DNA from: Naegleria gruberi
Taxonomy: Eukaryota
NCBI GenBank assembly: GCA_000004985.1
Contig: GG739367.1
Reading direction: 5' to 3' (one strand)
DNA length: 1,617 nt
Positions 1 through 1,617 of the stretch are shown piece after piece. How positions within the stretch are numbered: position 1 is the stretch's first letter; each line of letters opens with the position of its first letter. The position numbers and the translations under genes were made by a program. The notes beneath the pieces are model-generated. The model ran no database searches. It saw only the letters and a list, made by a program, of their open reading frames with translations, and was not told the origin of the DNA.

Positions 1-271
1 ATCCAAGTTATGGCAATGAGAAAATAAAGATTATAATGGATTTGGTGTCGTCTCATTTTTTTGTGAACATTCAATCCCATTTTGATATTCGGATCAAATT
101 CCTTGTAAAAGTTTAAATCCACACCATCTAATTTCACAGAAAAATATTTTGCAAGAGTGAAAAGGTGAAGAACATGATGGTGGCATGAATTAAATTGCTA
201 AAAATTGTAACTATTATGAGATTGCCGTAAAACAACCAATTTATAATTTTCATCATGAAAAATTATTTCTA

Positions 272-357
272 CTATTTAATACTGATGATGATGGTGAAGT
301 GAAAGGATAGTGATGTAAAACCACTCCGAAAATCAAAGGACCATTTGTTGAATATTT
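272..357 (+). repeat. Degenerate direct repeat, copy A: ctattta..tgatgatg...tttgttgaatattt.
   Basis: It shares a ctattta + tgatgatg(a) 5' module and an exact 14-mer, tttgttgaatattt (344..357 and 933..946), with copy B at 879..946. The middle of the two copies has diverged. Confidence 0.5.
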
Positions 358-651
358 TTTTCCTTGAATCATAAAAGTGGTTTGCATTCATTATTCTTAG
401 GTATCTTCTGGTGGAATCTCAGTTAGCTCGTCCTTCATTAAATTGTCATAATTTCCTTTTTTCTTTAGCCATTGATCGACTCATCTCGTAACAAGTTAGT
501 TCTTCTTGCTTTTCAAATATATCTCCATTTCTTCTTTTTGGACTTGCTGTCAAGAAAATCTTTTTGCATTAAAATAGTGAGCTTAATCAATTATAACTAT
601 ATCCAACCCTTTTGGTAAACTTTCTATACATTGAAATCCAGGATTTGGGTG

Positions 652-694
652 TTAACAATGACCAGCTCTTGGCGTGATGGTTGCAACGAAGCTT
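652..694 (+). repeat. Short degenerate direct repeat, copy X: ttaac...gcgtgatggttgcaacgaa.
   Basis: It aligns with 944..993 (ttaacggtcag...gcggtgatggttggcgcgaa). Both copies begin with ttaac and carry the core g(g)tgatggttg followed by cgaa. Confidence 0.4.
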
Positions 695-712
695 ATTAAA
701 TGCGTTGGACAA

Positions 713-724
713 GTTTGTTGTTTT
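713..724 (+). repeat. Exact 12-mer gtttgttgtttt, also present at 919..930 inside copy B.
   Basis: The two sites match exactly, and their downstream flanks are related: cgaaataatat at 725..735 versus gaatatttaa at 940..949. Confidence 0.35.
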
Positions 725-878
725 CGAAATAATATATGGTTCTGGAATTTTGTGGGCTATACTTTCAAAGTAAGTAGAAGTGAATACCAACACTTATCTA
801 GAAGATGTTTTGGTGAATGGCTGGTGTAGAAGGAAGCAAAGGGAGAACTCTCACGGTGCAGGTTGGATAAATAGGTTA

Positions 879-946
879 CCTATTTAGCAGGGTGATGATG
901 AAATCATGATGAGTAATTGTTTGTTGTTTTTTTTTGTTGAATATTT
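879..946 (+). repeat. Degenerate direct repeat, copy B, partner of 272..357.
   Basis: cctatttagcagggtgatgatgaaatcatgatgag...tttgttgaatattt aligns to copy A in the same orientation, about 608 bp away. It also contains the exact 12-mer gtttgttgtttt (919..930), which recurs at 713..724. Confidence 0.5.
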
Positions 947-993
947 AACGGTCAGAACAAACAACTTTCAGCGGTGATGGTTGGCGCGAAATC
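944..993 (+). repeat. Short degenerate direct repeat, copy Y, partner of 652..694. It directly abuts repeat copy B.
   Basis: Same alignment as copy X, spacing about 300 bp. Confidence 0.4.
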
Positions 994-1029
994 TTTGACC
1001 TAGTGAATGTTAGTGAACCAAGAGAATCA

Positions 1030-1110
1030 TGACTTGAGTTATAAGTGGATGTAGAGCAATAAATATTCAGAAATAGTATCAAAACTGATTGAAAGTTAGG
1101 AAGTTTCCAT
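1030..1110 (-). terminator. Putative 3' UTR and polyadenylation region of the minus-strand gene.
   Basis: It lies immediately downstream of the TAA on the minus strand. The reverse complement contains AT-rich TATTTATT and ATACTATTT elements, which resemble yeast efficiency/positioning elements. This is a compositional argument only. Confidence 0.25.
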
Positions 1111-1608
1111 TTATTTGTTAAACAATGTTTTTAGAGAATAGAGAACCAAGCCAGTCAACCCAATTTTCACAATAGTTTTCAATACTTTCCAAATAATAAA
1201 CAAAGTTGGAGAAAGAGTTTCCTTCAGCATTTCATCAATATCCAACTTGGTTGGGATTTCTCTTTTAGAATTGAGATTAAAACTTCTATTTCCTTGAAGT
1301 TTTTCATCGAATAGAGATCGCAATAGGAATGAGGCAACATCCTGACGAGTAACTTTGGATGAACCTTTCGGATAATTATTATCCTCTCCATATTCGAAAT
1401 CTAGAGTTATTGGTGAGTCCACCAATTGAGGAGGTCTTACAATGGCATAAGTAATTTTGGAATCTTTGGTCAATTGGCACAAGGTTCTTTCAGAATTTGC
1501 CAAATCTTGATAAACATTGTGGATAATATACTTTTTAAGGATATTATCAAAAAACCATGATTGTTTCACATCGAGAATGCCAGCCGACGTAATAATTGCA
1601 ATTCTCAT
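1111..1608 (-). CDS. C-terminal portion of a NAD(P)-binding Rossmann-fold atypical SDR (flavin reductase/BLVRB-like, fungal YMR090W-like). The stop codon TAA (rc of tta at 1111..1113) is included. The 5' end is probably incomplete, with an upstream exon beyond the window edge.
   Basis: This is a 165-aa stop-free ORF in AT-rich DNA; a random open run of that length is unlikely there. The peptide matches, by recall, the C-terminal half of the BLVRB/NmrA-like family: IAIITSAG resembles VVACTSAF, TYAIVRPPQLVDSP resembles KYVAVMPPHIGDQP, and SKVTRQDVASFLLRSLFDEK resembles [20 protein letters not shown] (yeast YMR090W has NREDVASF). Codon usage is yeast-like (AGA Arg, TTG Leu). The first Met has a weak context (C at -3). 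An in-frame TAG lies at 1612..1614 (rc), so the missing N-terminal GxxGxxG half must sit in an upstream exon or has been lost. Confidence 0.62.
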   Translation of the reverse strand: MRIAIITSAGILDVKQSWFFDNILKKYIIHNVYQDLANSERTLCQLTKDSKITYAIVRPPQLVDSPITLDFEYGEDNNYPKGSSKVTRQDVASFLLRSLFDEKLQGNRSFNLNSKREIPTKLDIDEMLKETLSPTLFIIWKVLKTIVKIGLTGLVLYSLKTLFNK

Positions 1609-1617
1609 TGGCTATCC

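Follow-up and report, generated by a model that had tools for sequence, protein, structure and literature searches.

A BLVRB-like protein of Naegleria gruberi with a conserved hydrophobic C-terminal tail, a candidate membrane anchor

Introduction

BLVRB-type flavin and biliverdin reductases and their bacterial relatives are regarded as small soluble enzymes. Here we describe a protein of the amoeboflagellate Naegleria gruberi whose chain runs on past the end of a BLVRB-like fold into a hydrophobic C-terminal tail. It is encoded on the minus strand of a 1617-bp stretch of DNA (hereafter, the window) that makes up one entire small N. gruberi scaffold, where it is annotated as an open reading frame (ORF) of 165 amino acids. 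A reading of the DNA letters (the original prediction) had proposed such a tail, though in a yeast, an origin that does not hold for this organism. We put a probability of roughly 0.68 on the tail being a genuine conserved C-terminal membrane-anchoring module on an NADPH-dependent reductase with a BLVRB-like fold.

The best solved match, by both sequence and fold, is human BLVRB (biliverdin IX-beta reductase / NADPH flavin reductase; PDB 1HDO, 5OOG, 7ER7). The two proteins share a single-domain Rossmann architecture (NAD_binding_10), a glycine-rich motif, the Arg in VLxR and the Ser in (I/C)TSA. BLVRB is soluble and ends 2-6 residues past the alignment, whereas the Naegleria protein continues into a linker, then a short helix, then a hydrophobic helix of 31 residues. 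The majority of the homologues found are bacterial PF13460 proteins of the 'putative NADH-flavin reductase' type (for example ChuY 5FFQ, SP1627 4R01 and YlbE 3DQP), which have the same domain at a similar catalytic length and stop 20-22 residues after a conserved R-x-D-V/L-A motif, without a hydrophobic tail. Closer to the window protein are NAEGRDRAFT_71868 (named 'FM182' in UniProt) and NAEGRDRAFT_69441 of N. gruberi, FDP41_011037 of N. fowleri and ABK040_016318 of Willaertia magna, with the same domain and a colinear tail (41-51% identity) and the same architecture in AlphaFold2 (AF2) models. Their hydrophobic segment is free of charges, about 3 residues longer and followed by 22-28 residues, whereas that of the window protein has three Lys inside it and 6 residues after it.

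It is common in evolution for a Rossmann reductase to gain a membrane anchor at one end; in DHRS7B the anchor sits at the N-terminus. DHRS7B is described as a short-chain dehydrogenase/reductase (SDR) with a transmembrane domain (TMD) (PMC7517302), and FAR1 is listed among the PEX19-binding tail-anchored proteins (PMC5450235). The protein described here would share their general design, in which one hydrophobic segment at a chain end fixes an NAD(P)H-dependent reductase domain to the cytosolic side of an organelle membrane. FAR1 and DHRS7B belong, however, to other Rossmann subfamilies (NAD_binding_4 and classical SDR), and homology between their anchors and the Naegleria tail was neither found in the sequences nor expected. 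Judged from this comparison, the resemblance is an analogy of design and not family membership. For the BLVRB-like subfamily itself, the literature searched contained no description of a terminal anchor.

A BLVRB-like domain and the tail beyond it

The window ORF is 100% identical to the deposited protein EFC35320.1 / XP_002668064.1 (NAEGRDRAFT_77026) and shares a 90% cluster with a 277-residue protein, EFC47061.1 (NAEGRDRAFT_47369), encoded on a 602-kb scaffold. Residue numbers below are those of this full-length copy unless ORF residues are named. The ORF and its parts, all on the minus strand of the window, are as follows.

1111..1608, minus strand: ORF of 165 amino acids (ATG at 1608, stop at 1111-1113), from the ORF list and its translation.
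1306..1605, minus strand: C-terminal half of the NAD_binding_10 domain (BLVRB-like, atypical SDR), ORF residues 2-101, matched by Pfam PF13460.
1267..1287, minus strand: last beta-strand, RSFNLNS, ORF residues 108-114, strand 220-226 in the AF2 model of the full-length protein; soluble relatives end here.
1240..1266, minus strand: polar linker KREIPTKLD, ORF residues 115-123, coil in the AF2 model, with a K-(L/V/I)-D motif common to the paralogues.
1216..1239, minus strand: short conserved helix IDEMLKET, ORF residues 124-131, AF2 helix 236-243.
1117..1209, minus strand: long hydrophobic/amphipathic helix PTLFIIWKVLKTIVKIGLTGLVLYSLKTLFN, ORF residues 134-164, putative membrane anchor, AF2 helix 246-276.

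PF13460 (NAD_binding_10) was matched by the window ORF with 40.9 bits against a cut-off of 27.2, over profile positions 92-183 of 184, and by the full-length copy with 90.4 bits over residues 15-213, profile positions 1-183 of 184. The closest solved structures by sequence were the human BLVRB entries (E about 1e-7, identity 23-24%), the alignment stopping at ...LQGNRSF, that is, at residue 222 of the 277, opposite BLVRB residues 200-204 of 206. An AF2 model of the full-length protein, built from a 15-sequence alignment, had a predicted local distance difference test score (pLDDT) of 89 and a predicted template modelling score (pTM) of 0.81. Foldseek matched this model to the BLVRB entries with E of 1e-15, target-normalised template modelling scores (TM-scores) of 0.84-0.89 and root-mean-square deviations of 2.6-3.3 A. 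In the superposition on BLVRB the TM-score was 0.87-0.89 normalised to the target and only 0.66 normalised to the query, because the tail is not covered by the BLVRB structures.

A basic residue after beta-2 goes with a preference for NADP(H) in this family, and Ser111 and His153 are the substrate-site residues of human BLVRB. The full-length copy has the glycine-rich dinucleotide-binding motif (LLGATQGVG opposite FGATGQTG in BLVRB) and retains the Arg after beta-2 (VLARNPS opposite VLVRDSS); both lie outside the window, whose copy begins near residue 112. The Ser opposite Ser111 is conserved (IITSAG versus ACTSAF), and His153 is replaced by Gln (RPPQLVD versus MPPHIGD). Because the glycine-rich motif, the Arg and the equivalent of Ser111 are kept, the Naegleria domain is likely an NADPH-dependent reductase. 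Its sequence places the protein in PF13460, with a fold like that of BLVRB; orthology to BLVRB and a role as a biliverdin or flavin reductase are not established.

Beyond the BLVRB-homologous fold the tail extends for about 55 residues (full-length residues 223-277, window 1278..1114; or, counted as ORF residues 110-165, window 1281..1114), 51 of which follow ...GNRSFNLNS, the end of the last strand. The tail of the original prediction is thus real, but slightly longer than the 45 or so residues given for it. The translation on which that claim rested agrees with the ORF, and the stretch rich in I, L, V, F and W and studded with Lys is present as described, at 1120..1209 (PTLFIIWKVLKTIVKIGLTGLVLYSLKTLF). 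In the AF2 model the tail consists of the strand 220-226, a coil, the helix 236-243 and a single 31-residue helix at 246-276 (pLDDT 73-83), which ends 1 residue short of the C-terminus. The short helix IDEMLKET is followed by a conserved Pro (LSP), and relatives show a matching M/I-x-x-L-K/R-x-x-x-P. The long helix has an amphipathic N-terminal part, a charge-free core (IGLTGLVLYSL) and a basic C-terminal flank (KTLFNK). No Pfam family matched the tail in a Pfam scan of the full-length protein.

The chance of 55 stop-free codons was 1.7% from base composition and 1.1% empirically, over the six frames of window 1..1100, in line with the few percent estimated earlier, and the remaining five frames of the tail region all hold stops. 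Between the two N. gruberi copies the tail is identical at 56 of 56 residues, and in relatives it is colinear. On a genomic contig with 99% identity to the FM182 paralogue, the whole 296-amino-acid protein, tail included, is encoded as one uninterrupted ORF. An intron or frameshift that removes the tail, raised earlier as a way in which the prediction could fail, left no sign in these data. The 5' splice-site motif GT[AG][AT]G[TA] was not found in the tail region, and conservation at the protein level reaches the last residues, so a cryptic intron was rejected. That the tail is real coding sequence, which had been called probable, is confirmed by these sequence comparisons.

Distribution of the tail among relatives

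To place the tail we relied on an exhaustive HMMER scan of 1.84 billion representative proteins, which returned 59 relatives at E <= 1e-3; word-indexed protein searches gave only 2-6, and the tail-bearing clade emerged from the exhaustive scan. Tail length was scored in the fetched relatives as the number of residues after the R-x-D-V/L-A motif. About 40 of the 59 are of the soluble form and end 20-22 residues after it, and 15 have 57-105 residues after it, including a hydrophobic segment. The tail-bearing proteins include the N. gruberi paralogues NAEGRDRAFT_69441 and NAEGRDRAFT_71868, N. fowleri FDP41_011037, N. lovaniensis C9374_007945 and Willaertia magna ABK040_016318, so the expectation that relatives keep the tail is borne out, and a comparable hydrophobic C-terminal extension occurs in an Arcella intermedia transcript and several metagenome proteins.

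Colinear alignment of the tails, up to the very C-terminus, was possible for the Naegleria/Willaertia group and for some of the metagenome relatives. These tails share an order of F-N-L/V-N/D, K-(L/V/I)-D, M/I-x-x-L-K/R-x-x-x-P, a basic residue, the hydrophobic segment with a conserved Gly in it, and L-Y/F-x-L-K-x-L-F. In a neighbour-joining tree of the domain only, with tails removed, the tail-bearing proteins formed one clade; the tree is crude and has no bootstrap values. This grouping suggests that the tail has a single origin.

In most close relatives the 22-28 residues after the hydrophobic segment form another helix. The AF2 model of FM182, for example, has a strand at 216-222, helices at 232-239 and 242-274, and a further helix at 280-295 (its own numbering). 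The window protein is without this last helix and ends with KTLFNK directly after the segment.

A few sequences near this group deserve separate mention. The model of N. lovaniensis C9374_007945 (222 amino acids) keeps the N-terminus and the tail and is without the Rossmann middle (about residues 85-170 of NAEGRDRAFT_47369); the gap is probably a mis-predicted exon structure and not a real deletion. A soil-derived fragment from a read-level protein assembly (SRR3989338) is 74% identical over 108 residues and ends at ...LQGNR. It was considered as a tail-less orthologue and rejected, as it stops 16 amino acids after the motif, before the soluble fold is complete at 20-22. The fragment points to an unsampled Naegleria-like organism. 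A scan of JGI metagenomes with a profile of the close relatives found only tail-less bacterial-type relatives at <=33% identity and no closer orthologue. As for the name of the paralogue 71868, 'FM' labels presumably go back to the N. gruberi genome paper and its catalogue of genes associated with flagellar motility. If that meaning holds, 'FM182' would hint at a flagellum-related role of the family. The tail-bearing homologue in the non-flagellate Arcella argues against a strict flagellate-only profile for the wider family.

Transmembrane or amphipathic character of the tail helix

In the paralogues the hydrophobic segment has 19-21 consecutive charge-free residues, a Kyte-Doolittle (KD) 19-mer value of 1.75-1.8 and a Wimley-White octanol energy of -8 to -10 kcal/mol. 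By these sequence measures it looks transmembrane (TM), resembling an ordinary tail-anchor-like TMD flanked by basic residues. The window protein has a KD 19-mer maximum of 1.63, below those of the paralogues, and in the alignment its segment is 3 residues shorter.

The N-terminal part of the window helix is strongly amphipathic. Residues 243-261 have a hydrophobic moment (muH) of 0.46, a mean hydrophobicity (<H>, Fauchere-Pliska scale) of 0.86-0.95 and a net charge of +3. A HeliQuest-type discriminant (D = 0.944 × muH + 0.33 × z, for which we take the threshold for a lipid-binding helix to be 1.34) came to 1.42; a helix that is purely peripheral would not usually reach so high an <H>. On the helical wheel three Lys fall together at 280-340 degrees, on one face, and apolar residues occupy about 260 degrees. 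From residue 261 on the helix is uniformly apolar, with muH <0.1 for windows 256-275. The helix propensity expected of the tail is therefore there, in the modelled 31-residue helix and its muH of 0.46. As to whether the helix is amphipathic or a tail anchor, which the original prediction had left as alternatives, the first property is strong, and the TM propensity, clear in the paralogues, is marginal in the window paralogue by the same measures. The choice stays either/or: the segment would be either a weak tail anchor, with its Lys snorkelling towards the cytosolic interface, or an anchor that lies in-plane or obliquely and descends from a true TMD.

At the other end of the protein, strand beta-1 starts at residue 10 in the AF2 model, leaving no N-terminal signal. 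Apart from the tail, just one 19-mer is hydrophobic (residues 11-29), and it corresponds to the beta1-alphaA element of the Rossmann fold. The candidate TMD has a grand average of hydropathicity of about 1.58 (residues 254-271) and the tail a charge of +2. In yeast and mammals, the class with a TMD of low hydrophobicity and a basic tail goes to mitochondria or peroxisomes (PMC5450235). By analogy, the values found here fit that class and would favour mitochondria or peroxisomes over the endoplasmic reticulum.

A membrane-anchoring module and its alternatives

Since the protein has no N-terminal signal and carries a hydrophobic helix at its C-terminus, it can most simply be modelled as a reductase that faces the cytosol and is tethered to an organelle surface. 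In the ancestral or paralogous form the long helix would be a TM segment of the tail-anchor type. In the lineage of 47369 and 77026 the segment would have become 3 residues shorter and Lys-striped on one face, with the following helix lost, and the tail would now most likely act as a weak tail anchor or as an amphipathic helix inserted obliquely or in the plane of the membrane. In both cases it would keep the catalytic domain at an organelle membrane, facing the cytosol, and the anchored reductase could there reduce a membrane-associated or locally produced substrate. Taken by itself, a true tail anchor is a tentative proposal, to which we give somewhat less than an even chance.

Several observations weigh against a membrane-anchoring module in the window protein. 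Its segment is the weakest of the family: the longest run without D, E, K, R, H, N or Q is 11 residues (IGLTGLVLYSL), and K253, K256 and K260 (ORF Lys141, 144 and 148) lie inside the homologous segment. A simple Hessa sum gave +5 kcal/mol, and the Wimley-White octanol energy of -3.2 kcal/mol is near the best 19-mers of the soluble relatives (median -2.0, range -8.0 to +3.7). The targeting rules cited above (PMC5450235) derive from yeast and mammals and not from Heterolobosea. The sole closer relative, the soil fragment at 74% identity, ends before the tail, although as a truncated assembly it is uninformative. Finally, the literature searched, which did not extend to the N. gruberi genome paper, contained no mention of these loci and no data on localisation, expression or activity.

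Some of the same observations would suit a variant of the anchoring module, whose probability is counted within the value given for the module as a whole. The tail may bind purely at the membrane surface, as a monotopic amphipathic helix lying in-plane, possibly on a lipid droplet or a curved membrane, and never span the bilayer, an ancestral TM segment having been converted. The Lys at i, i+3 and i+7 on one face (280-340 degrees), the muH, <H> and discriminant of residues 243-261, the limit of just 11 consecutive residues free of charged or strongly polar side chains, the barely favourable octanol energy and the loss of the paralogues' post-TM helix all point this way. There is also a precedent in Far1, whose C-terminal hydrophobic region is reported to take up an alternative topology on lipid droplets (bioRxiv 10.1101/373530). 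However, the homologous segments of all close paralogues resemble ordinary TMDs, the half of the helix with IGLTGLVLYSL is uniformly apolar (muH <0.1 for windows 256-275), and Lys near the cytosolic interface can snorkel. We regard an exclusively in-plane helix as possible, but doubtful.

A tail helix that serves as a soluble element for protein-protein contact or self-association (oligomerisation, docking of a partner, an autoinhibitory lid), and not as a membrane anchor, is improbable. The marginal hydrophobicity of the window paralogue would allow it, and a pLDDT of 73-83 would also suit a docking helix. However, an <H> of 0.86-0.95 and an apolar surface over about 260 degrees of the wheel are far above those of soluble helices, the polar positions follow no heptad pattern, and the paralogues' 19-21 charge-free residues, rich in G, S, A and F and with basic flanks, are typical of TMDs. 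It is very unlikely, lastly, that the tail is untranslated in vivo, through a gene prediction that reads into a 3' untranslated region or an intron or through the window copy being a dead fragment: the truncation of that copy at its 5' side by the contig end with an in-frame TAG upstream, the AT-rich DNA and the soil fragment ending at ...LQGNR would be in keeping with this, but the whole tail is conserved as protein in three Naegleria species, Willaertia and three N. gruberi paralogues, the stop-free run has a chance of 1-2%, the FM182 gene is uninterrupted through its tail, the soil fragment is shorter than the soluble fold and so has no natural terminus, and the tail-bearing Arcella homologue comes from a transcriptome.

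If a membrane-anchoring module is correct, a conserved protist clade with a C-terminal anchor on the BLVRB fold would place the chemistry of this fold at a membrane surface. It would also offer a way to approach function in Naegleria; the pathogen N. fowleri, which belongs to this genus, has a homologue with the tail. From a clean TM segment to a Lys-striped helix, the range is spanned by the three paralogues of N. gruberi, and they could serve as a natural series for relating tail-anchor hydrophobicity and charge to membrane association in a deep-branching eukaryote. There is nothing mechanistically unexpected in an anchored reductase, which would be a modest variant and not a surprise.

A more far-reaching and rather unlikely proposal is that these proteins form an undescribed subfamily of BLVRB-like NADPH reductases, found in Heterolobosea and more distantly in Arcella and uncultured protists, that are permanently tethered by the C-terminus to an organelle surface and reduce a membrane-resident substrate (a quinone, tetrapyrrole or flavin). 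The window paralogue would then record a shift from a TM anchor to a Lys-striped in-plane helix with a changed membrane or organelle specificity. The membrane involved may be the mitochondrial outer membrane, that of peroxisomes or lipid droplets, or, given the name 'FM182', a flagellum-associated one.

The locus and its two copies

The window scaffold is a near-duplicate of the NAEGRDRAFT_47369 gene on the 602-kb scaffold. Across the 165 shared amino acids, 77026 and 47369 differ at 3 positions (T/A, Y/F and S/T), all within the catalytic domain. From these sequences, NAEGRDRAFT_77026 is a 5'-truncated near-copy of NAEGRDRAFT_47369, and the window scaffold probably represents either a haplotype left unmerged or a duplicate of the 47369 locus that arose very recently. 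The remaining features of the gene are as follows.

1111..1611, minus strand: coding exon of the BLVRB-like NAD(P)H-binding protein NAEGRDRAFT_77026, from the match to EFC35320.1 and the cluster with EFC47061.1 (which reads ...KQDKPMRIAII).
1612..1617, minus strand: putative 3' end of an intron, last 6 nt (ggatAG), from the sequence and comparison with the full-length copy; 6 nt only.
1111..1113, minus strand: stop codon TAA, from the translation; a second in-frame TAA follows 4 codons further on.

The deposited 165-residue protein is a fragment that begins at an internal Met, residue 113 of the 277-residue copy. Beyond the annotated ATG there are 9 nt before the contig stops, and the frame upstream of this ATG reads G-stop-P-M, with an in-frame TAG. 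At the matching place the full-length copy has ...AMLKQDK, then PMRIAII. Most simply, the ggatAG at the contig end would be the 3' end of an intron, inside which the contig ends, and the in-frame TAG is present because this putative intron end adjoins the exon. The true reading frame of the exon thus probably starts at the Pro codon 1609-1611 and not at the ATG at 1608.

Remainder of the window

The rest of the window (positions 1-1110, downstream of the gene) contains no ORF >68 amino acids and gave no Pfam, Rfam, tRNA or tandem-repeat signal, only short two-copy repeats. This part may be intergenic, an untranslated region or a neighbouring gene with introns. A strong positive GC skew (0.43) was observed at about 700-1000 of the window, and a T-rich run at about 920-940.

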